DNA of 64,000 bases from Gemmatimonadota bacterium (GTDB lineage Bacteria > Gemmatimonadota > Gemmatimonadetes > Palauibacterales > KS3-K002): positions 14,412 to 78,411 of the forward strand of contig JBDHJU010000011.1 in assembly GCA_039586755.1 (NCBI GenBank), read 5' to 3'. Positions 1-16,990 of the stretch are shown here, in pieces. Both the position numbers and the translations under genes were made by a program. Within the stretch, counting starts at the first letter, position 1; every line of letters starts with the position of its first letter. Under the pieces are notes generated by a model that had not been told where the DNA came from, made no database searches, and saw only the letters and a program-made list of their open reading frames with translations.

Positions 1-733
1 TTTCGATTTCTTTCCCGTCGGAGGGCCGCTGGATCTTGCCCCCCGTGGGGCCGCCCACCGAGGCGAGGCGCTCCATCATCAGGTTGGTGATCACGTTCGG
101 GTATGTACCGAACCCCAGATTCTCGATCTGCTCGGCTGGGAACGGGTCCCAACCGGTCGCCCAGATCACAGCCTGAACGTCCAGCTCGATCGTCTCGGTC
201 CCCATATCGAGCTCGATTGCATCGTACGGACATGCCGGCACGCATTTCCCGCATTCGGCTCCCGGGCACACGCTACCGTCGATCGCGTACTGCAGCGGAT
301 GAGCCATCTCGAACGGCAGGTAGATTGCCTTGGTCACCGCCATCCCGAGGTTGAACTCATCAGCTCGCTCCACGGGGCAGGCCTCGACGCACTTGGCGCA
401 GGCCGTGCACTTGGCGTTCACAAAGCGTGGTGTTCGCTGGATGGTGGCTTTGTAGTTTCCGGGGCCGCCGGTGATCTTTTCGACCTGTGACAGCGTCAGG
501 CATCGAATGCGCGGGCTGGTCCTGAGGCGACGAAAGTGAATCTCCAGGCCGCAGGTCGGTGGGCAGAGCTTGGGAAAGTACAGGCTCATCTGAGCCACAC
601 GGCCGCCCAAGTGAGGGTTCTTCTCCACCAACACCACCTCGCAGCCTGCTTCGGATGCCTCGATCGCGGCGGCGATACCGCTTATGCCGCCGCCGATCAC
701 CAGGACCGTTCCCCGCTTCCCGTTTCCGCTCAT
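1..733 (-). CDS. qmoA: QmoA / HdrA-like FAD oxidoreductase, N-terminal part only (gene runs off the left window edge)
   Basis: Absent from the ORF track because it is open to the window edge. My reverse-strand translation from ATG at 733 reads MSGNGKRGTVLVIGGGISGIAAAIEASEAGCEVVLVEKNPHLGGRVAQMSLYFPKLCPPTCGLEIHF...CTACAKCVEACP...CGKCVPACPYDAIEL, with no stop down to base 1. It has a GGGISG dinucleotide-binding fold, an LCPPxCGLE motif and two ferredoxin-type Cys motifs, as in HdrA/QmoA. It lies downstream of aprBA as in aprBA-qmoABC loci. ATGA start/stop overlap with the upstream gene. Confidence 0.7.
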   Translation of the reverse strand, partial: MSGNGKRGTVLVIGGGISGIAAAIEASEAGCEVVLVEKNPHLGGRVAQMSLYFPKLCPPTCGLEIHFRRLRTSPRIRCLTLSQVEKITGGPGNYKATIQRTPRFVNAKCTACAKCVEACPVERADEFNLGMAVTKAIYLPFEMAHPLQYAIDGSVCPGAECGKCVPACPYDAIELDMGTETIELDVQAVIWATGWDPFPAEQIENLGFGTYPNVITNLMMERLASVGGPTGGKIQRPSDGKEIE

Positions 734-1626
734 GGTTTGTCCTCGTCGCGGGCCGTGGCCGGCTGACTGCTGAATACCTTCCTTTTGTCGAGGCTGCCCT
801 TGAAGGCATCGACTACTTCCGCCTTGGCCTTGACGGTCGGCTCGCCGAAGAGGCTGAACCGCAGCCAGAGGAACGCGAATCGTAGCAGCGCCTCGTCGTT
901 GTAGCGCATCTCTTCGACGAAGTCCTCATCCACATCGAACCGCTGCAGCAGCGTGCTGTCGAAAACGAACTCCCGGAACTTGTCCAGGTCGTAACAGGCG
1001 GTGAACAGCATGTGCATCTTCTGCGGCGAGAGGATCCCGCCATCCTCGAAGAACTTGTGGAGCGTCAGCTCCTTGTACGCCTCACCCCACTCGTCGTACT
1101 CGTCGATACCCTGGTCGTCGAGCCACTCGCGAACCGTCCACCGGTGCGACTCCGCGAATCCGCGGCAGCCCTCCTCCTGCAGGAGGAAGTAGAAGCGGTC
1201 ACCACGCCAGCCGTCCGGCGTGTCTTTTTGGGCCGCCAGCCCGAGTGGGTACATGCGGCAAGGCCATGGCCGGTCCGAGTAGACGCCGCAGCCGCCGTCC
1301 GTCAAGAACGGACAGGTCCGCACCTCGTCGTCGTTCATGCGGAGCATGACGACGGGGGTCTTCATGTCCTTCTGGACGGGCAGCAGTGCGTACTGGTCGA
1401 GGAAGTCGCTCGATGTCATCCCCAGGCGTCGCTTCAGGCGCAGGACATCGTACGGGGACAGGAAGATGTTCACGTCGCTGCAGCACTTATTGAAGCAGGA
1501 GACGCCGGGATGGCAGGCGAACTTGAAGGTGTCCTCGGGTCCGAGCCTGGCGTGATCGGTCAGGATTTTCTCCTCCAGGCGGCCATGGGGATCCTCAGAC
1601 GTCGGGGAACGTTGCTCGTCGGTCAT
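730..1626 (-). CDS. YkgJ/UPF0153-type cysteine-cluster protein (putative Fe-S or Zn protein)
   Basis: 298-aa ORF. N-terminal cluster ACHPGVSCFNKCC, then TCPFLTDGGCGVYSDRPWPCRMYP, which matches the C..FL...C.iY..RP..Cr.yP hallmark of the CxxCxxCC (YkgJ) family as I recall it. 4-nt overlaps with both neighbouring genes. Confidence 0.6.
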   Translation of the reverse strand: MTDEQRSPTSEDPHGRLEEKILTDHARLGPEDTFKFACHPGVSCFNKCCSDVNIFLSPYDVLRLKRRLGMTSSDFLDQYALLPVQKDMKTPVVMLRMNDDEVRTCPFLTDGGCGVYSDRPWPCRMYPLGLAAQKDTPDGWRGDRFYFLLQEEGCRGFAESHRWTVREWLDDQGIDEYDEWGEAYKELTLHKFFEDGGILSPQKMHMLFTACYDLDKFREFVFDSTLLQRFDVDEDFVEEMRYNDEALLRFAFLWLRFSLFGEPTVKAKAEVVDAFKGSLDKRKVFSSQPATARDEDKP

Positions 1627-1907
1627 TCATTTTCTCCTTCTTCGTTCTCCACGATCATCTCACGCGTCGCGGAGTCCGACCAGACCGGAATCATCGACGA
1701 GGCGCCAGTTGTGGGATTGACCATATATCGATACGACGCATGTTGACTAAACTGCTGTTCCATCCACTCCCAGCCCTCCCGGTAATACGAGCAGTCGTCG
1801 TTGAAGCAGACGTAGAGGAACTTCTCGGTCCACGTAGCGCCGTCCGGGACGATCCACTTCTTGAGACGCTGACCACAATGTGGACAGTCTCGGGAGATCT
1901 TGACCAT
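1623..1907 (-). CDS. Small zinc-ribbon-like protein of unknown function (94 aa from the internal ATG; the ORF is open to 1997)
   Basis: MVKISRDCPHCGQRLKKW...YVCFNDDCSYYREGWEWMEQQF gives CxxC plus Cx4C, four Cys in total. GAGGA lies 7-8 nt upstream of the ATG at 1907. Its stop overlaps the start of the YkgJ-like gene (ATGA). Confidence 0.5.
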   Translation of the reverse strand: MVKISRDCPHCGQRLKKWIVPDGATWTEKFLYVCFNDDCSYYREGWEWMEQQFSQHASYRYMVNPTTGASSMIPVWSDSATREMIVENEEGENE

Positions 1908-2080: not shown

Positions 2081-3082
2081 CTAACTCGTGATGTACTTGA
2101 CGGGCTTCTTCATCATCGTCCAGTCGCCCGTGCCCCTGTCGTACTTGCAGTTGCAGAAGGCAAGCCAGTTCTTGTCGTCCATGCTCGGTTTGTCAGCGCG
2201 GAAGTAGTAGCCCGGCCAGCGGGTCTCCTCCCGGAACAAGATCGAGCGCATGTGGGCATCGGCCTGGTACATGCGGTGGACGTTCTCCCAGCAGCGCATC
2301 AGCTCGTGCAGGTTGGAGGCCGCCAGCTTCTCGGCATCTTCCTTCAGGAAGCTCAGCAGCTCCATGCCCTTTTCGAGCAGCTTGTCGCTGGTCTTGAACT
2401 GGCTGGACACACCACCCGCGTACTCGTCCATGATCTTCTGCAAGCGGTACATGAACTGCTGCGGGCGGATGTAGTTGGGGTTGATATCCGGGTCAGTGGT
2501 CATGCCACTGTACTCCTCGAACGTTGCCATGGGCCTGAGGATCTCTGCCGTCAGCGCGTCGACCTGGCCCTGATCCAGGTTGGGGGCCTGGTTGTTGTCG
2601 ACGATGTAGGAGATCGCGGCCTTGGCTGCGATACGACCCTCGGCATGTGAGCCGGAGGAGAACTTGTGGCTCGAGGCTCCTGAGGCGTCGCCGGCGGCGA
2701 ACATCCCGTTGACCGTGGTCATGTGCGGGTAACCCCAGAAGTAGTCGTCCTTCGTGTCGGCGGTCTGCAGATCCTCCGGACCGGAGACCCAGGCGCCGGA
2801 GGCGCCGGAGTGCGACCCGATGAAGTAGGGATCACAGGCCATGATCTCGGAAGCCTTCTTCTCGGGCTCGACGTTCGTGGCGGCCCAGAGGATCGCCTGC
2901 GAGATCGTCATGTCGAGGAAGTCCTCCCAAGCTTCGGCCTCGCGGGTGCCTCGTCGGCGATCTTCTTGATCGCGTCGGAGGTCTGCATGTAGATCGGGCT
3001 CTTGCCGTCCATCACGTCCAACATCATCAGCCAGTTGCGGATATTGGCAGGACGCGGCTTCACCTTGCCGTAGGGCTCCCAC
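2081..3082 (-). CDS. aprA: Adenylylsulfate (APS) reductase alpha subunit, C-terminal fragment (the real AprA sequence begins near AEAWEDFLDM)
   Basis: From EAEAWEDFLDMTISQAILWAATN...FAAGDASGASSHKFSSGSHAEGRIAAKAA...RWPGYYFRADKP the translation is typical AprA. The N-terminal 40 or so residues of this ORF are out-of-frame read-through. Confidence 0.9.
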   Translation of the reverse strand: MGALRQGEAASCQYPQLADDVGRDGRQEPDLHADLRRDQEDRRRGTREAEAWEDFLDMTISQAILWAATNVEPEKKASEIMACDPYFIGSHSGASGAWVSGPEDLQTADTKDDYFWGYPHMTTVNGMFAAGDASGASSHKFSSGSHAEGRIAAKAAISYIVDNNQAPNLDQGQVDALTAEILRPMATFEEYSGMTTDPDINPNYIRPQQFMYRLQKIMDEYAGGVSSQFKTSDKLLEKGMELLSFLKEDAEKLAASNLHELMRCWENVHRMYQADAHMRSILFREETRWPGYYFRADKPSMDDKNWLAFCNCKYDRGTGDWTMMKKPVKYITS

Positions 3083-3939
3083 TTGTCGAGCTCGGCGGCG
3101 TTTTCCTGCATATAGTTGCCGCCCTCGGCGTTCGTCGCGATCGACTTGAAGAGCAGGAACCAGGCACCCACCGGGCCGTACGCGTCCTTGAACCGTACGG
3201 GGATGAAGCGAACTTCCTGGCAGGTCATCTCGGCACCGCCGTAGATCGTGAAGAAGGCGCTGGCGCCGGAGTTGAACGGCGGGTACCAGGAGCGGCCGAA
3301 GCCCTCACCGGTCGAACGCGGCTTGAACACGTGCACCGCACCGCCCATGGCGACCAGCGTGGCCTTTGCCTTGAACACGTAGATCTTATTCTCTCTGACG
3401 CTGAAACCGATCGCGCCCACGCACTTGTCGCCGTCCATCAGCGGGTGCGTGATGAACACGCGCTCGAAGTACTCGCCGCCGGCCTCTGCCAGCGCGTTCT
3501 TTGCCGCCTCAGCAACGATGACCTTGTAGGACTCGCCGTTGATCATCAGCTGCCAACGACCCTCGTGGACGTAGTTGCCTTCCTTGTCCTTCCAAATCGG
3601 CAGGCCCCACTTCTCGAACAGGTGGACAGTCGAGTCTACGTGGCGCGCGATGCTGGCCACGAGGTCCTCGCGGGTGATGCCCATGAGGTCGTTGCGGACG
3701 TAGTCGATGTAGTCCTTAAGACTGTTGTTGCCGCTGTTAAGGTCCACGTACTGGTTAATGGCCGACAGGCCCATGGCCACCGCTCCCGAGCGGTCCATGG
3801 CCGCCTTGTCCACCACGGTGACCTTCAACCCGTTCTTCTTCGCCCAATAGGACGCTTCGACCGCCGCTCCGCATGCGGCCATACCGCCGCCGCAGATAAG
3901 CAGATCGGTCTCAACCGTTACGGTCTCAAAATCCGGCAT
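2908..3939 (-). CDS. aprA: Adenylylsulfate (APS) reductase alpha subunit, N-terminal fragment (frameshifted relative to 2081-3082)
   Basis: MPDFETVTVETDLLICGGGMAACGAAVEASYWAKK... has the FAD-binding fold. It looks AprA-like through IYMQTSDAIKKIADE, then 11 unrelated residues and a stop. Confidence 0.9.
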   Translation of the reverse strand: MPDFETVTVETDLLICGGGMAACGAAVEASYWAKKNGLKVTVVDKAAMDRSGAVAMGLSAINQYVDLNSGNNSLKDYIDYVRNDLMGITREDLVASIARHVDSTVHLFEKWGLPIWKDKEGNYVHEGRWQLMINGESYKVIVAEAAKNALAEAGGEYFERVFITHPLMDGDKCVGAIGFSVRENKIYVFKAKATLVAMGGAVHVFKPRSTGEGFGRSWYPPFNSGASAFFTIYGGAEMTCQEVRFIPVRFKDAYGPVGAWFLLFKSIATNAEGGNYMQENAAELDKWEPYGKVKPRPANIRNWLMMLDVMDGKSPIYMQTSDAIKKIADEAPARPKLGRTSST

Positions 3940-3989: not shown

Positions 3990-4457
3990 CTAGAGCGTTG
4001 GGACCTTGTCCATCTTGACCGGGCCGCGCTCCGTGTTGAGGCCCTGCGGCTCGCACATCAGCGTCGCGCTCTTCAGGTCATCGTCGCCTGTCGGATAGTG
4101 ATCGAACGGCTGAGCCTTACCTTCCTCGACGCCCCTGCGGATCGGGAACTTGAAGCGTTTCGGCTTGATGTCCTTACTGCGGAACTGCAGGGTCCACATG
4201 ATGTCCTCGCTGCTACGCATCGCCGTGACGCTCGCCCCCAGCGGGACGAAGTCCTGGTAACCGCGGACCTCGATAGCCTGCGTCGGGCAGATCTTCACGC
4301 AGCTGTAGCATTCCCAGCACATCTGCGGATCCTGGTTGAAGGCCTTCATGCTATCCTTGTTCAGGACCATGAGATCGTTCGGACAGATGTGCTGGCAGGC
4401 GGTCTTATCGAGCGCCTTGCAACCGTCACACTTGTCCACAATCACGTAACTCGGCAT
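3990..4457 (-). CDS. aprB: Adenylylsulfate (APS) reductase beta subunit
   Basis: MPSYVIVDKCDGCKALDKTACQHICPNDLMVL...MCWECYSCVKICPTQAIEVRGY...DIMWTLQFR shows the characteristic AprB two-[4Fe-4S] ferredoxin domain plus tail. It lies directly upstream of aprA. Confidence 0.93.
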   Translation of the reverse strand: MPSYVIVDKCDGCKALDKTACQHICPNDLMVLNKDSMKAFNQDPQMCWECYSCVKICPTQAIEVRGYQDFVPLGASVTAMRSSEDIMWTLQFRSKDIKPKRFKFPIRRGVEEGKAQPFDHYPTGDDDLKSATLMCEPQGLNTERGPVKMDKVPTL

Positions 4458-4772: not shown

Positions 4773-6965
4773 TCAGGAGCCGATTAGCGAGGGGAGGTGG
4801 TTCTCGATCCACTCCTCGACCTCGTCGACGGCGGCTGAGAAGTGGGGTTGGGAGCGCATGGCGTCTGCGAAACCGGCAACGGCCCGGTCGAGATCCTCGG
4901 CGGTCCAGAGTGATAGGCCGTTCGGCAAGTCGGTCGCGGGGATGGAGCCGAACGTGTTGAAGTCGATGACCCTGAGGGGCTCGGCGGTGAAATCGCGCAG
5001 ACCGCCCAGGGTTTTGGCATCGAAAAGGGGTTCTTGGCTGTCGACGCCGAAGTAGACGAAACCTGCATGGGCGATGGCGCGGGCGACGCCGGCCTCGGAG
5101 TACGACTGGACACGCAGGCGCTTCCCGTGGCCGACGGCACTGCGCAGCAGCTTGAGCTGGCCGTGGTGCCTCCTGTAGATCAGGGTCATCTGGCTCTGAG
5201 GTACGTCGAAGTGCTCGGACAGGGCGGAGAGGATCGAACGCGAAGTAGCCGATCCCCCGATGACGACGTGACGACACTCGTCCATGTGGGCGCCGTCGAC
5301 CTCCTGGACCCGTGCCAGGGCGGCCAGACAGAAGCTGGGGCTGAAACGACCCCATGCGGTCTCGGCTCGTACGTCGCGCGCGAGAGCCACGGCGTTTTTC
5401 ACCAGGCAGGTCGCTCGCGGACCTGCCGTGCCGGCGCGTTCGGCGGTCCGGCAGGCCGTCTGCAGCTGCGCCACCACGTCGGTGTCCCCGGGCAGGGCAC
5501 TATTCAGGCCGCAGGCGGTGCGCATCAGATGATGCCAGGCCTCGAAACCGAGCAGTGTGTTCACCTCTAGCCCTTCGGTCTCGGGACCGTACAGTCGGTC
5601 GCGGATCTGCTCGGCGACCCGCTTCCGCGCCGCGGGGTCGCCCGGATCGGCGAGCCAGCCGTAGAACTCGATCCGCTGACAGGTACTCCAGACGAACGCC
5701 TCGCTGATACCGGGCATCTCCCGCACCGAGTCGAGGAAGCCACGCACTTGTTTACGGGTCTTCCTAACCTTGCCGAAAACCCGGGGACGGCTGTACCGCA
5801 TGCGGGGACCGCGGCCGGAACGGACTCCGCCCTCGAACGAGGCGCCGATCATCACCAGCGACTCGGGCTCGCCGTCACAGAGTTCCAACTCCGGCTTCAG
5901 CCTCAGCAGCGGAACGGGCGCCGGCCGATCCGCCGTCACCGGACGCGGCCCCCTGAGCACCAGATTCCTGAGGGCTGCGACGAACGGCTCGGACGCGTTC
6001 AACCCAGGGCACAAGCTGAGTTGGCCGCCCCCCGACTCGAAGACCTCCCGGCATTCCACGTCGATCTCCCCCAGCGTCTCGAACCCGTCGATCGGCGCCG
6101 TGATCGCACTGACCAGCACCTTCTTCTCACCCGCGTCGGCGAGCTCGGCGAGCCTCTCGCTGATATGGGGGCGGAGCGAGCAGAGCGGCGCCGGGTGGGT
6201 CAGGAAGCCTAGCGAGGCCCTTTCCAGCGGCCAGCCCAGTCGGTCGGCGACCAGCCTGACCGTCCGTCTCACCTGACCCGTGTAGAGGGCCCCCCCCTGG
6301 CCCCGCGAGGCCGGCTGGCCGTGAGCGCAAAAGACCAGGTGCGCCTCATCCGGCCACAGGCCCTCCGACGCGGCATAGTCGGCGATAATTCGGGCCTGCG
6401 CTTTGACGTAACCCACGTCGTCATACCAGGTGGATCGAAGCGCCACATTGATGTGCTGCCCCCTGTGCCTCAGCACTCGGTGCAGCTCGCGAAGGATGGT
6501 GCCGGACGTGGCACGGTTGAACTGAGGGTACATCGGCACGACCACCAGATCGTCGATGCCGTCGGCTTCTACCTGGCTCATGACGTCGGCTATCTTCGGC
6601 TGGCCGTAGCGCATGGCCACGTAAACGGCCCAAGCCTCGGGCAGCGCCGCGGCGAGGGCCGAGGCCTGATCCGACATGAGGACCGCCTGCGGAGCTCCGC
6701 GCACGTCCCAGACTTTGCCGTACAGATCGGCTGAGGGGGCAGCCAGGCGCCCGGCCCGCATACGGCCGAGACCCCGCTGAAGCCAGTTCAGCCCCTGAGG
6801 CCACTTGACGAGCGAGGAGTCGGTGAATGACTCCGCCAGCAGCTTGCGCACCGATGGAACGTCGGGCCGATCGGGCGCTCCTAGACCGACCAGCAGGACG
6901 CCCCGGCGTCGCGAAGCCTGTGGTGGGCGATCCGCGCCCAATGACGGCTCTGTCTGGAGGTTCAC
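4773..6965 (-). CDS. Fusion protein: N-terminal ferrochelatase (HemH/class II chelatase) domain plus C-terminal glutamyl-tRNA reductase (HemA)-like domain
   Basis: 730 aa. N-terminal half: VLLVGLGAPD...VVVPMYPQFNRATSG...VFCAHGQPASRG...IDGFETLGEIDVE, a ferrochelatase pattern. C-terminal half: AFVWSTCQRIEFYG (the GluTR catalytic-Cys STCNR-E motif), ALPGDTDVVAQL, and a degenerate VVIGGSATSRSI nucleotide-binding site. Confidence 0.7.
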   Translation of the reverse strand: MNLQTEPSLGADRPPQASRRRGVLLVGLGAPDRPDVPSVRKLLAESFTDSSLVKWPQGLNWLQRGLGRMRAGRLAAPSADLYGKVWDVRGAPQAVLMSDQASALAAALPEAWAVYVAMRYGQPKIADVMSQVEADGIDDLVVVPMYPQFNRATSGTILRELHRVLRHRGQHINVALRSTWYDDVGYVKAQARIIADYAASEGLWPDEAHLVFCAHGQPASRGQGGALYTGQVRRTVRLVADRLGWPLERASLGFLTHPAPLCSLRPHISERLAELADAGEKKVLVSAITAPIDGFETLGEIDVECREVFESGGGQLSLCPGLNASEPFVAALRNLVLRGPRPVTADRPAPVPLLRLKPELELCDGEPESLVMIGASFEGGVRSGRGPRMRYSRPRVFGKVRKTRKQVRGFLDSVREMPGISEAFVWSTCQRIEFYGWLADPGDPAARKRVAEQIRDRLYGPETEGLEVNTLLGFEAWHHLMRTACGLNSALPGDTDVVAQLQTACRTAERAGTAGPRATCLVKNAVALARDVRAETAWGRFSPSFCLAALARVQEVDGAHMDECRHVVIGGSATSRSILSALSEHFDVPQSQMTLIYRRHHGQLKLLRSAVGHGKRLRVQSYSEAGVARAIAHAGFVYFGVDSQEPLFDAKTLGGLRDFTAEPLRVIDFNTFGSIPATDLPNGLSLWTAEDLDRAVAGFADAMRSQPHFSAAVDEVEEWIENHLPSLIGS

Positions 6966-7459
6966 GGCTGGGGTTTGAGCTTGCGATCCTGGCCGATGAG
7001 ATCGGTGATCTGGTCGCGTGTGCGTCTCGCCAGCGCCGGATCGCGTCCATCGGTGAAGACGGCGATCGTGACGTCCTCACTTTGCAGCAGAGCTCCAAAG
7101 ATTACCTGCGAGCGCTCGGCCGATGACGCGTCGCACGCCAGTGCGCCGTTCCGAACTGCAGCTTGGACGACGGCGGCGTTGCGGTCATCCTCATCCGTGG
7201 CGGCGACGGCGAGGAACTTGCTACCCATGTGCTCTTCGCGGAACGAGTCCTGTACCCAGCGGACGCGGCCGGCCTCGATCAGCTGGGCGAGCTCGTCTGT
7301 AACCTCGGGTGATACCACGGTAACGACGGCCCCGGCATGCGTGAGGGTGATGACTTTGCGAGTCCCGACATTTCCGCCACCCACGACCAGGCAGTCCTTG
7401 TTCCGGACGTCGAGTCCTAGCGGCAGAAAGCGTAGCCTGTCCGAGGGGTCGCTGGTCAT
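6962..7459 (-). CDS. sirC: Precorrin-2 dehydrogenase / sirohydrochlorin ferrochelatase-type protein (SirC / CysG N-terminal domain-like)
   Basis: LPLGLDVRNKDCLVVGGGNVGTRKVITLTHAGAVVTVVSPEV...LAVAATDEDDRNAAVVQAAVRNGALAC is the typical siroheme synthase N-terminal Rossmann domain. GTGA overlap with the downstream fusion gene. Confidence 0.75.
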   Translation of the reverse strand: MTSDPSDRLRFLPLGLDVRNKDCLVVGGGNVGTRKVITLTHAGAVVTVVSPEVTDELAQLIEAGRVRWVQDSFREEHMGSKFLAVAATDEDDRNAAVVQAAVRNGALACDASSAERSQVIFGALLQSEDVTIAVFTDGRDPALARRTRDQITDLIGQDRKLKPQP

Positions 7460-7488: not shown

Positions 7489-7941
7489 TCAGTGGCCGAC
7501 GCTCAATATACCGCTCGCCGCGAGTGTCAGGATGGCAGCCTCCAACAGGGCCATGACCACGTAGGGCGTATCTCGTTTCTTGATTAGCGTGGGGACGATT
7601 CCCAAGAAGCAGAAGATGGTCACTGCGGAAAGCACGGCGATCCCCAGAAAATTCAGATAGTCACCCTTTCCGATCACGGACAGCCAGGACCATCCGGATA
7701 TCGGGTGCTCATGGTGCAGGTGGTCGTGATTCGTCGCCTCCAGATAGTCGTGGACGTTCATCGTCCAGTACTCGGGGAGTTGTTCCACCGGAACGGCCGG
7801 CGCAACGATGCCGCTGGTGTAAAGGGCAAAGGTCACGAGTAGGAGGGCCAGCCCGAAGTACATGCCGGTCTGGAGGATCTTGGCGTAGAGGAGTTGTTCC
7901 TCGTCAGCGCCAGGGCAATCTACGTTGCCGTTCGTCTCCAT
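7489..7941 (-). CDS. Small polytopic membrane protein, possibly the DUF1634-type partner of TauE/DUF81 permeases
   Basis: 150 aa with about four hydrophobic helices and a His-rich loop (HDHLHHEH). It lies 15 nt downstream of the TauE-like gene. The family assignment is from memory of gene-neighbourhood patterns only. Confidence 0.4.
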   Translation of the reverse strand: METNGNVDCPGADEEQLLYAKILQTGMYFGLALLLVTFALYTSGIVAPAVPVEQLPEYWTMNVHDYLEATNHDHLHHEHPISGWSWLSVIGKGDYLNFLGIAVLSAVTIFCFLGIVPTLIKKRDTPYVVMALLEAAILTLAASGILSVGH

Positions 7942-7956
7942 GTTTACACTCGCTCC

Positions 7957-8910
7957 CTAAACGATGAACGGGAGGCCGAGTCCCTTGGTGATCGCCTTGG
8001 CCCCGGCGAAGAGCAGCAGGGCGATGACGACCCAGCGAACGAACCCCGGCCTCGCGATCCGCAGGATTCGTACGCCGATAAACGACCCCAGCATTATGCC
8101 TACCAGTGACGGCACTACCATCATTGGGATTACGGCGCCCTTGTTAACATAGATCCAGGCCGCCGACGTGTCAGTGATTGACAAAAGGAATTTGCTGGTC
8201 GCCACACTGACCTTGAGCGGCGCTCCCATCACCAGGTTCAGAACCGGGATGTTGGCCCAACCGGCGCCCAGTCCGAACATCCCCGCCATCACGCCTATAA
8301 CAATGAACAGTAGCAAGCCGGGCACAGTACGGTGAACCTTCCAGTTGATCGTCTGACCCATGCTCGCCTCTGTGTACACGCCACAGATCCGCAACGCCGA
8401 AGAGACACGGTCTGGCTCAGCGACCTCCGGGAACACCGATTTCTTCGCTGCGATCATTATCGCGACAATCCCCAGGATGGTCGCTCCGAGGGCTGTCTGG
8501 ACAATATTCGTCGGTAGAGCGAGGCCGATCATCGCTCCGACGATCGCACAAGTCGAGGCGATCAGGGCCACAGGCATCGCCAGGCGCAGGCTGGCCAGGT
8601 TCATCTTCAGGAAGCCCGGCCCGGCGGCGAGCGCGCCGCTTAGCGCCACCAGAAGCCCACAGCCGCGAACGAAGTCGAGGTGGAAGGGAAAGAACCCACT
8701 CACGATCGGAACGAACAGAACGCCTCCGCCCACACCGCCCAGAGCCGCGAGGATGCCCATGACGAACGTGAGCACGAACAGGATGAGCGGCCACACCCAC
8801 CATGCTGTCGTGCTGCTGGAGACCGCTGGCGCCGTCAGATCGCTCGCCTGGATGACGGTTGGGTAGAGCAGCAGGAAAAGGCAGAGAAGTGCGCCCGTAA
8901 GATACGGCAT
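7957..8910 (-). CDS. tauE: TauE/SafE (DUF81) family sulfite/organosulfonate anion exporter
   Basis: Polytopic and Gly-rich: LGGVGGGVLFVPIVSGFFPFHLDFVRGCGLLVAL...GLGAGWANIPVLNLVMGAPLKVSVATSKF. The likely start is MPYLTGALLCLF at 8910. The ORF is open to 8988, but that extension looks like a relic of another gene (see findings). Confidence 0.75.
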   Translation of the reverse strand: MPYLTGALLCLFLLLYPTVIQASDLTAPAVSSSTTAWWVWPLILFVLTFVMGILAALGGVGGGVLFVPIVSGFFPFHLDFVRGCGLLVALSGALAAGPGFLKMNLASLRLAMPVALIASTCAIVGAMIGLALPTNIVQTALGATILGIVAIMIAAKKSVFPEVAEPDRVSSALRICGVYTEASMGQTINWKVHRTVPGLLLFIVIGVMAGMFGLGAGWANIPVLNLVMGAPLKVSVATSKFLLSITDTSAAWIYVNKGAVIPMMVVPSLVGIMLGSFIGVRILRIARPGFVRWVVIALLLFAGAKAITKGLGLPFIV

Positions 8911-8965
8911 GAATCGTCGCGTTCCTAAGATGTTCACCTGGCCTCGACTCGGGGTTCCACGCGAC

Positions 8966-8984
8966 ATCGTGATAATCGCACGAT
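8966..8984. promoter_or_regulatory. Perfect 6-bp inverted repeat ATCGTG-N7-CACGAT upstream of tauE
   Basis: Plus strand atcgtg (8966-8971), ataatcg, cacgat (8979-8984). It lies 56-75 nt upstream of the probable tauE start and shares the AATCGTG core with the aprBA upstream repeats. Confidence 0.35.
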
Positions 8985-9183
8985 TCAACCTGATGCGAGA
9001 TATGCTCGGCGGCGCGCGGTGTCAAGCTGAGCGGAGTGTGGGCTGTCTCATCGCTGGAGAAAGGTCGAGCAATATGATATCTTGCGGTGGCCGCTTTTCT
9101 CGTGCGAGGCCTCGCGACGTATTGCGCCTCGCGAGTCCGAAGGCGCTCAGCATCCACGCGAGCCCACATGTGGGCCAGGAGTC

Positions 9184-9858: not shown

Positions 9859-10785
9859 TTGATGAGCAAAATCAAGCTGCTCCTCGTCGATGACGAAGAA
9901 GCCTACGTAAAGACGCTGGCCGAGAGAATGGAGATGCGCGACGTCGGCAGTCGCGTGGCCTTGAGCGGCGAAGAGGCGCTGGAGATGCTCGAGGACGAGC
10001 CGCCCGACGTGATGGTTCTCGACCTCCGCATGCCGGGCATCGACGGGATGGAAGTGTTAGAGCGGGTCAAGCAGAAGCATCCCCACGTAGAAGTGATCAT
10101 TCTCACCGGGCACGGCTCGGACAGAGAGGAAAAGGAGGCGCGCAGGCTGGGGGCGTTCGAGTACCTGCAGAAGCCGGCGGATACGAGTCACCTCCTGAAT
10201 ACCGTTCGGGCGGCTTGGCGAAAGAGCTTGAAGGCCGCCGCCGAGTTCATCAAGGACTCGCAGGAAGAATTCGACAGGAGCATGGCTGCGGCAGCTTTCG
10301 CTGAGGCGGGCGCGCCGGAGATCGCCAGGGAGACGATGCAGGAGTCGACCCCGCGACCCGACGTGGACACCGATGAAGCCGGCGCCGCGGAGGCCGACGC
10401 CGCCACTCAGACGCTCAAGGTCCTGTTCGTTGATGACGAAGAGGACTTCGTGCGGACCATGGCCGAACGAATGGAGATGCGCGACGTGGGCAGCGAGGTG
10501 GCGCTGGATGGACAGCAGGCATTGGAGATGCTCGAGGACGAAGTACCGGACGTCATGGTTCTCGACCTGCGTATGCCGGGCATCGACGGCTTGGAGGTAT
10601 TGCGGCGCGTCAAGAGGACGTATCCAGAGATGGCAGTGATCATCATGACCGGCCATGGGTCGGAGGCGGACGAAGCAGAAGCTCGCCGCTTGGGGGCGTT
10701 TGATTACCTGACCAAGCCGGTCGACATCAATCAGCTCATGGATGTTATCCGCGAAGCGGGTCGCTCGCGTCGGAAAGCGGAGTAG
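9859..10785 (+). CDS. Tandem double-receiver (REC-REC) response regulator with no output domain
   Basis: Two CheY-like domains. Each has DD (LLVDDEE / LFVDDEE), a phospho-acceptor Asp (VMVLDLRMPGIDG in both), T (ILTGHG / IMTGHG) and K (YLQKP / YLTKP). An acidic or Ala-rich linker joins them. Confidence 0.85.
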   Translation: MMSKIKLLLVDDEEAYVKTLAERMEMRDVGSRVALSGEEALEMLEDEPPDVMVLDLRMPGIDGMEVLERVKQKHPHVEVIILTGHGSDREEKEARRLGAFEYLQKPADTSHLLNTVRAAWRKSLKAAAEFIKDSQEEFDRSMAAAAFAEAGAPEIARETMQESTPRPDVDTDEAGAAEADAATQTLKVLFVDDEEDFVRTMAERMEMRDVGSEVALDGQQALEMLEDEVPDVMVLDLRMPGIDGLEVLRRVKRTYPEMAVIIMTGHGSEADEAEARRLGAFDYLTKPVDINQLMDVIREAGRSRRKAE

Positions 10786-10809
10786 GGATGGGCGGTCGGG
10801 TTAACGAAG

Positions 10810-12573
10810 ATGATGGTGGAGACGGTAAGCCTGGTTGACGGAACGGGGGAAGATCAAGATCAACTGATCTCCCGACGGCGCTACAGGAAGATGATTCTCG
10901 TGGCGGTGCTTTCGGTATCGGCTGTAGCCGTCGCTCCGCTTCTCATCATGTCGAGTATTACCTACCACCAGTATCAGGAGGCGTTCCGAGCTGAGCTGAC
11001 CCGCCCCATGCTGCGGTTCGCCGTGGCCGGTAAGCAGGCGATCGAGTCCTACCTCTCGGAGCAGGTAGCGGCTCTCGCCATGGTGGCGCGCGAGACGTCG
11101 CTCAAGGAGCTTCGTGACCCGGGAAGGTTGAGCTCGTTGCTCACCAACATGAACCAGACCTTTGGCGGAGTGGTCGAGCTCAGCATGATCAACGAGGGGG
11201 GCGTGCAGGTCGCCTATGCCGGTCCGGGGGAGCCGCAGGCGGTCAGCTACGCGGACGATCGGTGGTTCCGAGAGGTCAGCGCCCGCGGCACGTACGTTAG
11301 CGACATGTTCCTGGGGCACCGAAACGACCCCCACATGGTTGTCGCGATCCAGCACGAAGACTCGGAAGGGAATCGGTACATCTTACGTGCGACGCTCGAT
11401 ACCGATCCATTCCACTGGCTAGTGCGCGCTCGTACGGCCCGCCGTCCGGAACTCAACCAGGTCTGTCGCAGATGCCATTCGCTGGGGGCCCAACAATTCA
11501 GCGACGCGTTCATCGTCAACCGCGAAGGTGTCCTGCAGAGTTCCTCGCGTCTTTATGGCGGCGTGTTGGAGCGCACCCCCTTACCGACTTTTCCGTACAG
11601 CAGTCAGGTGGAGCTTGTCGATGTAGTGGACGAGCAGGGAGAGCCGCTCATCGTATGTTACGCGCAGATCGATCGCTCGCCGTTTACGCTGGTGGTGTTG
11701 AGTCCTCGCATCGCTCTGCACGCGGGTTGGTTCCCGCTGCGCCGCGACCTGCTGGTATTTCCGGCGATCAGCGTCGCGCTGATTCTGGCAGTCGTCATCT
11801 GGGGTTCGATCTACGTGGTGAACCGCGTTCGCGAGGCGGATGCAAAGCGCGCGGCGCTCTACCACAAGATGGAGTACACCAACAAGATGGCCGCTATCGG
11901 GCGCCTGGGTGCCGGTGTGGCTCACGAGATCAACAACCCGCTGTCGATCATCACCCAGAACGCGGGACTGCTGAAGGATCTGATCACGCTGTCCGAGGAG
12001 TTACCCCCGAGGGATAAGCTGACCCATCTGGTGAATTCGGTTCTCAACGCCGCCGAGCGCTGTGGTGGGATTACCCACCGTCTCCTGGGTTTCGCCAGGC
12101 ACATGGAAGTGCAATGGGAGACTATCGATCTCGATGGGTTGCTCAGAGAAGTCCTGGAGTTCCTTGGGAAGGAAGCCAGCTACCGTGACATCCAGATCGA
12201 ATTCAAATACTCCGGTACGCCGCCTCCCATCGTCAGCGACAGGGGGCAGTTGCAGCAAGTGTTCCTGAACATCGTCAACAATGCTTTCGCCGCAGTCGAT
12301 GATGGTGGGCAGATCGAGATTGGGATTGAACAGCTTGGGGACGACGCCGTTGCGGTGACCATCGCCGACGATGGCGTAGGCATTCCTGAGGAACAGCTGG
12401 GGCAGATCTTCGATCCGTTCTTTACGACGAAGAAAGGTGCGGGGACGGGCCTGGGTCTCTCCATTACATATGGGATAGTGCAAAAACTGGGTGGGCAGAT
12501 CAGCGTCGAGAGCAAGGTGGGTGAAGGTACCTGCTTCACAGTCACACTGCCGATACGTCGGGCGCACGCCTAG
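10810..12573 (+). CDS. Membrane sensor histidine kinase with a periplasmic double-Cache-like domain
   Basis: TM1 near residue 30 and TM2 LLVFPAISVALILAVVIWGSIYVV. H-box AAIGRLGAGVAHEINNPLSII, N-box QVFLNIVNNAFAA, G-boxes DDGVGI and GTGLGLSI. The periplasmic segment contains CRRCH. Confidence 0.85.
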   Translation: MMVETVSLVDGTGEDQDQLISRRRYRKMILVAVLSVSAVAVAPLLIMSSITYHQYQEAFRAELTRPMLRFAVAGKQAIESYLSEQVAALAMVARETSLKELRDPGRLSSLLTNMNQTFGGVVELSMINEGGVQVAYAGPGEPQAVSYADDRWFREVSARGTYVSDMFLGHRNDPHMVVAIQHEDSEGNRYILRATLDTDPFHWLVRARTARRPELNQVCRRCHSLGAQQFSDAFIVNREGVLQSSSRLYGGVLERTPLPTFPYSSQVELVDVVDEQGEPLIVCYAQIDRSPFTLVVLSPRIALHAGWFPLRRDLLVFPAISVALILAVVIWGSIYVVNRVREADAKRAALYHKMEYTNKMAAIGRLGAGVAHEINNPLSIITQNAGLLKDLITLSEELPPRDKLTHLVNSVLNAAERCGGITHRLLGFARHMEVQWETIDLDGLLREVLEFLGKEASYRDIQIEFKYSGTPPPIVSDRGQLQQVFLNIVNNAFAAVDDGGQIEIGIEQLGDDAVAVTIADDGVGIPEEQLGQIFDPFFTTKKGAGTGLGLSITYGIVQKLGGQISVESKVGEGTCFTVTLPIRRAHA

Positions 12574-15520: not shown

Positions 15521-16339
15521 CTAGGGGTACGGGTCAAACCACTCGACGTTCAGGCGAACCTGATCTACGCCCGGTACCGAGCGGGCGATCTCCACGATCT
15601 CTTGCCCCATCCGGCCGGACTTGAGGGCCGGAGCGCTGCCGGATACCTCTATTACTCCGTCGTGCCCTTCGATCTGGAGATCGAGGACGCGAGTCTCGCG
15701 CGTGCTCGCCAGGGCGGCCTTGACCCGAGACGCCATACGGAAGTCCATGAGCTTTGCCTTCACTTCGGGGGTGACGGCGAAGTCCGGCTGCCTCACCGCC
15801 CGCGCCACGATATTGCAGGCGGCGGGCACCGACAGGGTCTGCAGGTTGATCACCATATCGTACAGTGCCGGATCCTCGATGTCCTCACCGTACATCATCT
15901 TGACCCAGCGGGCCCGCGCTGCGTCGACGTGCTGTATGTACTCTTCGGCTGAAGTCGGGGTCATTTCGTTACGCTCCAGCAGCGTAGACACTCGTGCGCC
16001 CATGGGAGCGATCAGGCGCACCCGCAAAACAGCTGGAAGTCCCGCGAGCAGCATTTGCCCAGCGCGACCGTGGTAGACCAGATCTCCGCCGACGGTGTGT
16101 TCGGCGAGGGCTGCCTGGATTGTCGCGATGTAAGCACGCCGTACCGACGCGTGCCGCTTCCACAATCTCGGGGCGCGCTCCATCGCGCGGCTCAGCTCCT
16201 GCTCTGAAATACCGAGCTCAGAGGCCGCATCCTGAAGGACCTCCCGCGCAACCAGCGGATACTGAAGTTCCTCAGCAAGGCATTCCGCCAGCGCCTGGCC
16301 GCCGCTTTGCGTGCCCCGACAAATACTTATAATAGCCAC
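15521..16339 (-). CDS. Cytidylate-kinase-like family (Cytidylate_kin2-type) protein with a C-terminal BON domain
   Basis: MAIISICRGTQSGGQALAECLAEEL is the family-typical N-terminus and lacks the Walker-A Lys. C-terminal part: VKAALAS...LQIEGHDGVIEVSGSAPALKSGRMGQEIVEIARSVPGVDQVRLNV, a BON-like pattern. Confidence 0.6.
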   Translation of the reverse strand: MAIISICRGTQSGGQALAECLAEELQYPLVAREVLQDAASELGISEQELSRAMERAPRLWKRHASVRRAYIATIQAALAEHTVGGDLVYHGRAGQMLLAGLPAVLRVRLIAPMGARVSTLLERNEMTPTSAEEYIQHVDAARARWVKMMYGEDIEDPALYDMVINLQTLSVPAACNIVARAVRQPDFAVTPEVKAKLMDFRMASRVKAALASTRETRVLDLQIEGHDGVIEVSGSAPALKSGRMGQEIVEIARSVPGVDQVRLNVEWFDPYP

Positions 16340-16342
16340 GTC

Positions 16343-16990
16343 TCAGCCTTCTCCCGCCTGTTGGAGCTGCTCGCGGCACTTGGCTGCAAAGGCTGCGAGC
16401 TTCTGCTTCACATCGTCGGTCATCTCGTACTGTGGCTGTGCCGCCGCTTCTGCGATGATCTCGCACGCCGTCTCGAGGGAGATCGACTGCAGGTTGATGG
16501 TTAGATCGTATAACGAAGGATCCTCGACATCCGCCCGGTACATCAGCTTCACCCAACGCCGGCGGTCTTCGTCCACGTCTTGAATGAACTCCTCGGCCGC
16601 CTTATGGGTCATGCGGTGGTGCGAGTCCATCAATGCCCGCATGCGCATCTCGAGCGGCGCGATGAGCCGGACAGCCAGTACGCCGGGAAGCTCACGCAGC
16701 AGGAATTGCCCGGCCAGTCCGTGGTAAACCACTTCACCGGTCGTACAGTGCTCGGCCAGGGCAGTCTGAACGGCGAGCAAATACGTCTTGCGCTCCTGGG
16801 TCAGTCGAGCCCAGCGAGATGGGGTCGCCTCGAGCTTGCCGCTCAGATCCTCCTCTGACGCTCCTAACTTCTTGGCGGCCTCCTGAAGGATCTCGCGCCC
16901 GACGCAGGGATAGTTGAGCGCGCGGGCGAGACACTCCGCCGTCGCGCGGCCTCCGCTAAGCGTTCCACGGGAAATCGTAATAATAGCCAC
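16343..16990 (-). CDS. Cytidylate-kinase-like family (Cytidylate_kin2-type) protein, paralog of 15521-16339
   Basis: MAIITISRGTLSGGRATAECLARALNYPCVGREILQEAAKKLG is colinear with its neighbour over about 200 aa (VYHG.AGQ.LL..LP.VL.VRLIAP...RRRWVK.MY..D.EDP.LYD..INLQ). There is a 3-nt gap to the next gene. Confidence 0.6.
   Translation of the reverse strand: MAIITISRGTLSGGRATAECLARALNYPCVGREILQEAAKKLGASEEDLSGKLEATPSRWARLTQERKTYLLAVQTALAEHCTTGEVVYHGLAGQFLLRELPGVLAVRLIAPLEMRMRALMDSHHRMTHKAAEEFIQDVDEDRRRWVKLMYRADVEDPSLYDLTINLQSISLETACEIIAEAAAQPQYEMTDDVKQKLAAFAAKCREQLQQAGEG

Follow-up and report, generated by a model that had tools for sequence, protein, structure and literature searches.

How does one protein come to hold both the entry and the exit of tetrapyrrole synthesis, and what do its two halves do? 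Glutamyl-tRNA reductase (GluTR) is the main control point of this pathway, and ferrochelatase (HemH) is its exit. The question is raised by a gene in a stretch of 64,000 nucleotides from a Gemmatimonadota bacterium (assembly GCA_039586755.1, contig JBDHJU010000011.1, positions 14,412 to 78,411), here called the window. The gene is a single open reading frame (ORF) for a HemH-GluTR fusion protein. Comparison with its relatives indicates that this is probably a two-module tetrapyrrole protein, composed of a working, divergent GluTR and an ancestral HemH that has since been remodelled. It would represent a distinct, previously unnamed family of Phycisphaerae/Planctomycetota and sulfur-metabolising Gemmatimonadota.

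Domain structure of the fusion protein

An earlier sequence-only reading proposed that one polypeptide joins a ferrochelatase domain to a GluTR-related domain. The continuous ORF (Table 1) and the Pfam and NCBIfam profiles bear this out. In the N-terminal half, PF00762 (Ferrochelatase) matches aa 21-337 with 202 bits, and TIGR00109 (hemH) scores 166.2 bits, exceeding its cut-off of 124.6. In the C-terminal half, PF05201 (GlutR_N) matches aa 398-536 with 74.9 bits, and one NCBIfam GluTR model aligns over aa 403-670. PF01903 (CbiX/SirB) gave no match in the window protein at E<=0.01. Every motif quoted in the earlier reading is found at the expected residues. The HemH half contains PMYPQFNRATSG (aa 144-155), FCAHGQP (aa 212-218) and FETLGEID (aa 295-302), as well as the YPQ motif. 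The GluTR half contains STCQRIEFYG (aa 427-436) and VIGGSATS (aa 568-575).

The AlphaFold2 model of the fusion, built on a 49-sequence family alignment, has a mean predicted local distance difference test (pLDDT) score of 85.9. Foldseek matched its N-terminal half to human ferrochelatase (template modelling (TM) score 0.78, E 3.5e-19). The C-terminal half was matched to Arabidopsis GluTR with NADPH (5yjl; E 1.9e-16) and also to Methanopyrus kandleri GluTR. In the model, the GGSATS loop falls between a strand predicted at aa 566-569 and a helix at aa 573-584.

Distribution of the fusion

The same architecture is found in other genomes. A search of 5.8 billion proteins revealed 110 protein clusters, with 36-100% identity, in which both Pfam domains are encoded in one ORF. 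Their named sources are Gemmatimonadota or Planctomycetota/Phycisphaerae, and their proteins currently carry the labels "ferrochelatase" or "protoheme ferro-lyase/glutamyl-tRNA reductase". Among species-representative genomes, a scan revealed the fusion at 69 loci, all of them in metagenome-assembled genomes (MAGs). Most of these loci belong to the same two phyla, with a small unclassified remainder. Individual loci and proteins are cited below by their L and P numbers.

The junction near 5850-5960, where a hidden stop or frameshift had been considered, is continuous in the window, and the linker residues are conserved across the family. The fusion is not considered to be an artefact, because the same continuous ORF is present in the 110 clusters and 69 loci, which come from many independent assemblies.

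Conservation and homology of the GluTR half

In an alignment of 106 full-length family members, nine residues of the GluTR half (T428, C429, R431, E433, R482, G486, L487, S489 and P492) are present in all members. H479 is present in 104 of the 106 and Q500 in 105. STCQRIE (aa 427-433) aligns to sTCNRmE of 4n7r, and HHLMRTACGLNSALPGDTDVVAQ of the window protein, an instance of the substrate-site motif H-L-x-R-V-x-x-G-L-x-S-x-x-x-G-E-x-(E/Q)-I-x-x-Q, aligns to RHLFRVASGLESMMVGEQEILRQ of 1gpj. The residues of the substrate site reportedly have roles in glutamate binding, a result attributed to Moser et al. (2001).

The NADPH site had been described as degenerate, with VIGGSATS in place of GxGxxG. 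The alignment does not agree with this description, and the degenerate site was rejected. The loop G570-G571-S572-x-T574-S575, or GGS(T/A)TS, is a family-wide motif, and its residues are kept in 103-106 of the 106 members. It is followed across the family by a conserved Y597-R598-x-H600. None of the 78 gene copies from the loci and the window lacks C429, S572 or T574. Alignment to the GluTR structures pairs GGS(T)TS with GAGEMG in 1gpj and with GAGKMG in 4n7r, and the "YR" with "NR(T/S)" after beta-2. The invariance of this variant loop across the family argues for ligand binding.

The family profile of the C-terminal half matches 1gpj with an E value of 6e-15 and 4n7r with 1.3e-14, and the matches cover both the catalytic and the NADPH domains. 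The earlier reading had staked its proposal on profile searches of this half; these two matches, together with PF05201, confirm that it is related to GluTR. A phmmer search of this half against 1.84 billion representatives returned 66 proteins at E<=1e-30 and 4391 at E<=1e-3. There is a gap in score between the family (at least about 110 bits) and canonical GluTRs (at most 78 bits).

In a rough neighbour-joining tree without support values, the family is monophyletic on a long branch, with fused forms on the deepest branches. The same tree places the Gemmatimonadota clade within sequences of the Planctomycetota type and shows the stand-alone forms scattered. The deepest-branching members have strong HemH domains (302-313 bits). 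Because of this tree pattern and the strong HemH domains of the deepest members, the comparison suggests that the fusion is ancestral and that HemH later decayed or was lost repeatedly.

Three groups and the decay of the HemH half

The family falls into three groups. Group B, from Phycisphaerae/Planctomycetota, has proteins of 735-817 aa in which PF00762 scores 300-332 bits, the catalytic His and Glu are intact and the first ~90 HemH residues are present. Group C, which includes most Gemmatimonadota, has proteins of 620-710 aa with PF00762 scores of 49-153 bits; His and Glu are mostly lost and the first ~90 HemH residues are missing. Group A is the clade of the window, also from Gemmatimonadota. 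Its proteins are about 730 aa long, PF00762 scores 202-226 bits, His and Glu are intact except for Glu in one lineage, and the first ~90 HemH residues are present. Over the whole family, the catalytic His is kept in 76 of 106 members and the Glu in 72.

The two halves show different levels of conservation. The mean pairwise identities of the HemH half and the GluTR half are 0.59 and 0.49 in group B, 0.40 and 0.60 in group C, and 0.77 and 0.77 in group A. Among the positions conserved in group B, 75 are in the HemH half, and group A keeps 72% of these and group C 49%. A further 51 are in the GluTR half, of which the two groups keep 97% and 95%, respectively.

Some genes have no HemH domain. L048 has a 388-aa stand-alone GluTR-like gene which begins exactly at the linker, overlaps the SirC gene by GTGA and has aprBA after it. 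The HemH domain is also gone in L066, L070, L071, L073 and L074. In dozens of species of the sister clades, a clearly dead, shortened HemH remnant persists. Comparisons with about 100 family members point to the GluTR half as the working part that the protein cannot do without, and to the ferrochelatase half as the one subject to remodelling, decay or loss.

Two stand-alone HemH proteins were uninformative for co-occurrence with the fusion. P0334, from Gemmatimonadota, is from an assembly that differs from the fusion-bearing genome, and P0265 is on a scaffold with gaps.

Gene context of the fusion

In group B, hemN is located directly after the fusion in 35 Phycisphaerae/Planctomycetota loci. 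hemE, hemY and hemB come next wherever the contig reaches, and hemC and hemL are on the opposite strand where the contig extends. A hemD match was seen in a few loci only. The hemN gene matches TIGR00538 with 466 bits, and hemY, the protoporphyrinogen oxidase gene, matches TIGR00562 with 267 bits. At L005, hemL begins 2 nucleotides past the stop codon of the fusion. The group-B cluster is a complete set for protoporphyrin-dependent haem synthesis in which separate genes are lacking only for the hemA and hemH steps, and both of these are in the fusion. With P0111, itself a canonical GluTR, and the window protein as tblastn probes, no canonical GluTR was found within 10 kb on either side of any locus or in the window.

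In group C, the typical gene order is dsrA-dsrB-...-dsrN-(tauE-x)-sirC-fusion-cbiX-cobA/hemD. At L025, hemB, hemC and hemL adjoin the fusion. In group A, the order is tauE-x-sirC-fusion-aprB-aprA. The gene for P0013 lies within sirC-fusion-cbiX-cobA/hemD and encodes a canonical-looking HemH half (291 bits). Because it pairs a canonical HemH with an adjacent CbiX, the fused HemH is not considered to have been originally a sirohaem chelatase.

Most other Gemmatimonadota loci carry cbiX directly downstream of the fusion, but neither the window nor the group-A loci have one within 10 kb. A strict rule in which an intact HemH domain goes with the lack of an adjacent CbiX, and the reverse, was rejected. 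L023, L025, L032 and L061 have neither the catalytic His nor an adjacent CbiX, and P0013 breaks the rule in the other direction.

The HemH domain of the window clade

The HemH domain was compared with 96 stand-alone ferrochelatases, in which 69 positions reach at least 90% conservation. The window protein keeps 45 of these positions, a group-B member 63 and a group-C member 26. By alignment, the positions lost in the window protein correspond to human R115, S130, S261, D274/P275 (the GDPY motif), Q302/S303, G306, W310, F337 and H341. Several of the residues equivalent to R115, S130, Q302, S303, W310 and F337 we take to be porphyrin contacts. Six substitutions are fixed in the clade (R74L, S91A, D226A/S, P227L, W263S and F290A/S), all at sites invariant in the 96 stand-alone ferrochelatases.

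In the window clade, the ratio of nonsynonymous to synonymous substitution rates (dN/dS; Nei-Gojobori, seven members) comes to 0.23 in the HemH half and to 0.18 in the GluTR half. Because of the value of 0.23, the HemH domain of this clade is considered to be kept by selection and not to be decaying. His215 is present in all members of the clade, and Glu296 in all but one lineage. We think that the N-terminal module of this clade binds a tetrapyrrole, and to judge from its conserved residues it is probably still a metal chelatase. The pattern of losses and retention fits an unusual active ferrochelatase, a non-catalytic binding role or a switch of substrate, for which the coupling of the fusion gene to SirC makes sirohydrochlorin the obvious candidate.

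Proposed function of the two modules

The general GluTR mechanism involves a Cys thioester, NADPH and channelling to glutamate-1-semialdehyde (GSA) aminomutase (PMC7242693). From domain identity, conservation, gene context and selection, we infer the enzymatic activity, cofactor and substrate of the fusion as follows. The C-terminal module (aa ~355-730) would be a divergent, working glutamyl-tRNA reductase. Its Cys429 would attack Glu-tRNA(Glu), yielding a thioester. The Rossmann domain with its GGS(T/A)TS loop would hold a reduced dinucleotide, probably NAD(P)H, and hydride transfer would reduce the thioester to GSA, which would be handed to HemL. This GluTR subclass would supply the haem precursor in Phycisphaerae, and the precursor of both sirohaem and haem in the dsr/apr Gemmatimonadota, the window organism included.

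The N-terminal module would be an ancestrally fused ferrochelatase of the protoporphyrin type. In Phycisphaerae it is canonical and would supply the hemH step. The fusion would originally have united the enzymes of the first and the last step of haem synthesis in a single protein. In Gemmatimonadota, the HemH part appears to have been remodelled (the window clade), degraded by the loss of ~90 N-terminal residues and of catalytic residues, or deleted. The substrate of the module in the window clade could be protoporphyrin, or sirohydrochlorin from the translationally coupled SirC.

The GluTR half resembles the canonical enzymes of M. kandleri (1GPJ) and Arabidopsis thaliana (4N7R/5YJL) in several respects. 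It has the T-C-x-R-x-E motif and the H..R...GL.S..(G)(D/E) motif, its catalytic and Rossmann domains come in the same order and have the same fold, and the genes of its relatives lie near hemL, hemB, hemC, hemD and hemE. It differs from them in being usually fused to HemH, in forming a separate clade, and in having GGS(T/A)TS instead of GxGxxG. It also lacks the dimerisation domain of the V-shaped GluTR dimer; only ~40 residues follow the Rossmann domain. The family is here classed as a divergent GluTR subclass, which by its sequence would work like a GluTR, and not as a canonical member, because it lacks the dimerisation domain and falls short of the equivalog score.

Several observations weigh against a working GluTR joined to a working chelatase. 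In the GluTR half, TIGR01035 (hemA) reaches 74 bits, about one third of its cut-off of 209.55, and Pfam found no match to PF01488 (Shikimate_DH/NADPH domain) or PF00745 (GlutR_dimer) in the window protein. Two of the three canonical glycines of the dinucleotide loop are replaced by Ser, and the binding of NADPH is a prediction. The argument from the missing hemA and hemH genes spans 10 kb on either side of each locus, and no other hem gene lies within the window. For the window organism, the connection with hemL and the rest of the hem genes is therefore drawn from its relatives. Against continued chelatase activity stand the loss of 24 of the 69 near-universal ferrochelatase positions in the window protein and a Thr at the position of the catalytic Glu in the L011/P0012 lineage.

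Alternative explanations

One alternative gives the HemH half a new role and leaves the GluTR half a reductase. It is possible, though held with less confidence than the remodelled chelatase with a working GluTR, that the HemH-derived domain was exapted, either as a sirohydrochlorin ferrochelatase or as a silent tetrapyrrole feedback sensor. The C-terminal half would then be a new GluTR subclass with a non-canonical loop and perhaps a different reductant or binding mode. The two forms of this exaptation are considered separately below.

A non-enzymatic HemH domain in the window clade would be a tetrapyrrole sensor or scaffold which tunes GluTR, either by feedback or as a substitute for the missing dimerisation domain. 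The 24 lost positions are consistent with this role, and so is a PF00762 score ~100 bits below those of Phycisphaerae. The domain is still conserved in the one member without the catalytic Glu, and the dead HemH remnant has been retained rather than deleted in dozens of sister-clade species. However, the window clade has kept His215 throughout and Glu296 in all but one lineage over synonymous divergences (dS) of up to about 1, whereas the degenerate clade loses these residues quickly. The stand-alone GluTR-like forms also imply that the HemH domain is not structurally required. A sensor or scaffold is therefore regarded as somewhat unlikely.

In the other form, the GluTR half is catalytic and the HemH domain of the window clade has switched to sirohydrochlorin, replacing the CbiX of the sister clades. 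Only in the window clade are CbiX and CobA/HemD missing downstream, with aprBA in their place. The changes fixed in the clade affect invariant sites, and small residues in place of the bulky W and F could enlarge the pocket for an isobacteriochlorin. The catalytic His and Glu are kept, with a dN/dS of 0.23. On the other hand, the argument draws on a single evolutionary event, so that the correlation has n=1, and cbiX, sirB or cysG could be located elsewhere in the genome. The Thr of L011/P0012 and the absence of the HemH domain from the same context at L048 also speak against it. The lost Arg and Ser presumably bind carboxylates, and their loss would be an odd adaptation to a substrate with eight carboxylates. 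Such a switch is considered unlikely.

The sequence-only reading itself had suggested that the HemH domain works with SirC as a sirohydrochlorin ferrochelatase and that the GluTR-like half is non-catalytic, with a regulatory or sensing function. The overlap of start and stop codons with SirC, the lack of CbiX within 10 kb of the window and group-A genes, and the purifying selection on a HemH domain that has lost near-universal residues are all in its favour, as is a GluTR half without the GxGxxG loop and the dimerisation domain. For the GluTR half, the comparisons point in the opposite direction. This half is the best conserved in the family, with every catalytic and substrate-site residue invariant, and it occupies the hemA slot beside hemL, hemN and hemE in Phycisphaerae. 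It survives alone after deletion of HemH, even in the SirC/aprBA context of L048, and such stand-alone forms would leave a regulatory domain without a target. For the HemH half, P0013 combines a canonical HemH with an adjacent CbiX, and the window protein has no PF01903 signal. This model as a whole is very unlikely.

Finally, a spurious joining of separate hemH and hemA-like genes at the junction, through faulty assembly or sequencing, is scarcely credible and was rejected: a 34-bp deletion in the nearby aprA shows an indel-type lesion in the window, and one long-read contig (L077) has the two halves called as separate adjacent genes, but the continuous ORF with its conserved linker recurs in independent assemblies, and the L077 contig also has split hemC and hemD and hence probably bears errors itself.

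Comparison with known fusions and significance

The N-terminal half of the fusion is similar to HemH/PpfC (human FECH, 1HRK) in its class II chelatase fold, its His/Glu pair, its YPQ motif and its score above the TIGR00109 cut-off. It differs in its fusion to GluTR and, in the window protein, in the lost positions listed above, among them the equivalents of GDPY, Q302, S303, W310 and F337. A natural fusion of ferrochelatase to another haem-pathway enzyme is known from Cutibacterium acnes, where the HemH-HemQ (CpfC-ChdC) protein revealed the role of the partner (PMC8529089, PMC13564367); these papers name no other ferrochelatase fusion. The partner in that case catalyses the next step, whereas here it belongs to the first committed step and the HemH half later became dispensable. 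The sirohaem enzymes (CysG, the CobA-HemD fusions, and SirC with SirB/CbiX) share the pathway neighbourhood of the fusion and the same tendency of tetrapyrrole enzymes to be fused. Unlike SirB/CbiX, the fusion has no PF01903 domain, and a small separate CbiX is encoded alongside it in the sister clades.

Full-text literature searches aimed at the HemH-GluTR fusion found no mention of it, papers on Dsr and sulfur metabolism included, and it is apparently undescribed, as had been supposed. The family can be seen as a natural experiment in the coupling of flux and end product, in which the entry and exit enzymes were joined and the ferrochelatase half was then stripped of catalysis in some lineages. 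A GluTR without the dimerisation domain and with an altered loop would challenge what counts as essential in this enzyme, and equivalog models would miss it or call it wrongly. Under the annotation "ferrochelatase", the MAGs of Phycisphaerae and of dsr/apr Gemmatimonadota may seem to be without hemA. In Gemmatimonadota, the fusion gene would be part of a module for sirohaem supply tied to dsrAB, dsrN and aprBA.

Neighbouring genes

The features of the fusion gene and its neighbours are listed in Table 1.

Table 1. Positions of the fusion gene, its domains and residues, and adjacent genes. Coordinates are those of the window unless a locus is named.
Feature	Coordinates	Strand	Residues	Remarks
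HemH-GluTR fusion ORF	4773..6965	(-)	730 aa	stop codon included in coordinates; GTG start; zero internal stops
Ferrochelatase (HemH, class II chelatase) domain	5952..6905	(-)	aa 21-338	PF00762, Foldseek
His215 codon	6321..6323	(-)	aa 215	equivalent to catalytic His263 of human ferrochelatase, alignment to 2pnj/1hrk
Glu296 codon	6078..6080	(-)	aa 296	equivalent to Glu343 of human ferrochelatase, by alignment
Interdomain linker	5865..5951	(-)	aa 339-367	free of stop or frameshift; pLDDT <50 at aa 357-365
GluTR catalytic (N-terminal) domain	5346..5864	(-)	aa 368-540	PF05201; bears STCQRIE and HHLMRTACGLNSALPGD motifs
Cys429 codon	5679..5681	(-)	aa 429	predicted thioester-forming nucleophile; aligned to TCNR motif of 4n7r
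Variant Rossmann-type dinucleotide-binding domain	4902..5345	(-)	aa 541-688	aligned to NADPH domains of 1gpj and 4n7r
GGSATS loop	5241..5258	(-)	aa 570-575	sits where GAGxMG is canonical
Short C-terminal helical tail	4776..4901	(-)	aa 689-730	two short helices in the model, 689-704 and 709-722
Short SirC/CysG-N-like gene, putative precorrin-2 dehydrogenase	6962..7459	(-)	165 aa	PF13241 85 bits; TIGR01470 cysG_Nterm 97.5 bits
AF_1016/DUF1634-like membrane protein	7489-7941	(-)		conserved upstream neighbour
TauE/SafE-type transporter	7957-8988	(-)		conserved upstream neighbour
aprB	3990-4457	(-)		downstream of fusion
aprA	2081-3939	(-)		downstream of aprB
SirC-like gene, L002	9531-9995
SirC-like gene, L006	9194-9583
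Small ORF upstream of fusion, L003	9320-9859
Small ORF upstream of fusion, L005	9439-9876
Small ORF upstream of fusion, L007	8557-9087

The TGA stop of the SirC-like gene overlaps the GTG start of the fusion (GTGA), and aprBA lies alongside, as the sequence-only reading had stated. A SirC-like gene is the upstream neighbour at most Gemmatimonadota loci. These genes are consistently short (154-165 aa, and 129 aa as called in L006). The match covers positions 1-146 of the 205-position CysG-N model, and the C-terminal part of SirC, Met8p and CysG-B is missing.

The TauE-type transporter and the AF_1016/DUF1634-like protein accompany sirC-fusion across Gemmatimonadota. Together, these genes may form a conserved sulfite/sirohaem unit. 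At L080 (2018-5162) and L006 (6301-9060), tauE is preceded by two Cytidylate_kin2-like genes. In the window, two adjacent paralogous ORFs at 15521-16990 (-) may be the counterparts of this pair.

Downstream of the fusion, a frameshifting deletion of 34 bp at 2942/2943, seen against three close homologues (L008, L009 and L015), divides aprA into two overlapping ORFs. The deletion is either a true pseudogene mutation or an assembly error. In CP070812.1 (L001/L012), an 85%-identical relative, aprB is shortened to 115 aa and aprA is absent. Because of this, the apr locus may be decaying in the lineage of the window. A scan for promoters and terminators found nothing beyond chance, apart from a single weak promoter-like site between the fusion gene and aprB.

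In most Phycisphaerae loci, a small ORF of 145-179 aa lies directly upstream of the fusion. It is hydrophobic and poorly conserved, and probably encodes a membrane protein; no NCBIfam family matched it.

Variant arrangements of the fusion

Three arrangements differ from the usual one. At L077 (8001-10302), an otherwise typical hem cluster has separate adjacent gene calls for HemH (348 aa) and for the variant GluTR (392 aa). Indel errors are the likely cause, because hemC and hemD are split on the same contig; true gene fission is the alternative.

At L007 (9332-13141), P0074 (1269 aa) is an apparent triple fusion of HemH, the GluTR-like domain and HemN (radical SAM) in a hem cluster of the Phycisphaerae type. 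At L003, the stop codon of the fusion overlaps the start of hemN, so that a single indel could create a triple fusion.

L047 (CP070685.1, Phycisphaerales) carries two paralogous HemH-GluTR fusions ~8 kb apart on a single chromosome, at 60-1772 (-) and 10001-12127 (+). One adjoins cbiX and cobA/hemD, a context of the sirohaem type, and the other is in a hemN-hemE cluster. An aprB-like fragment lies between them.

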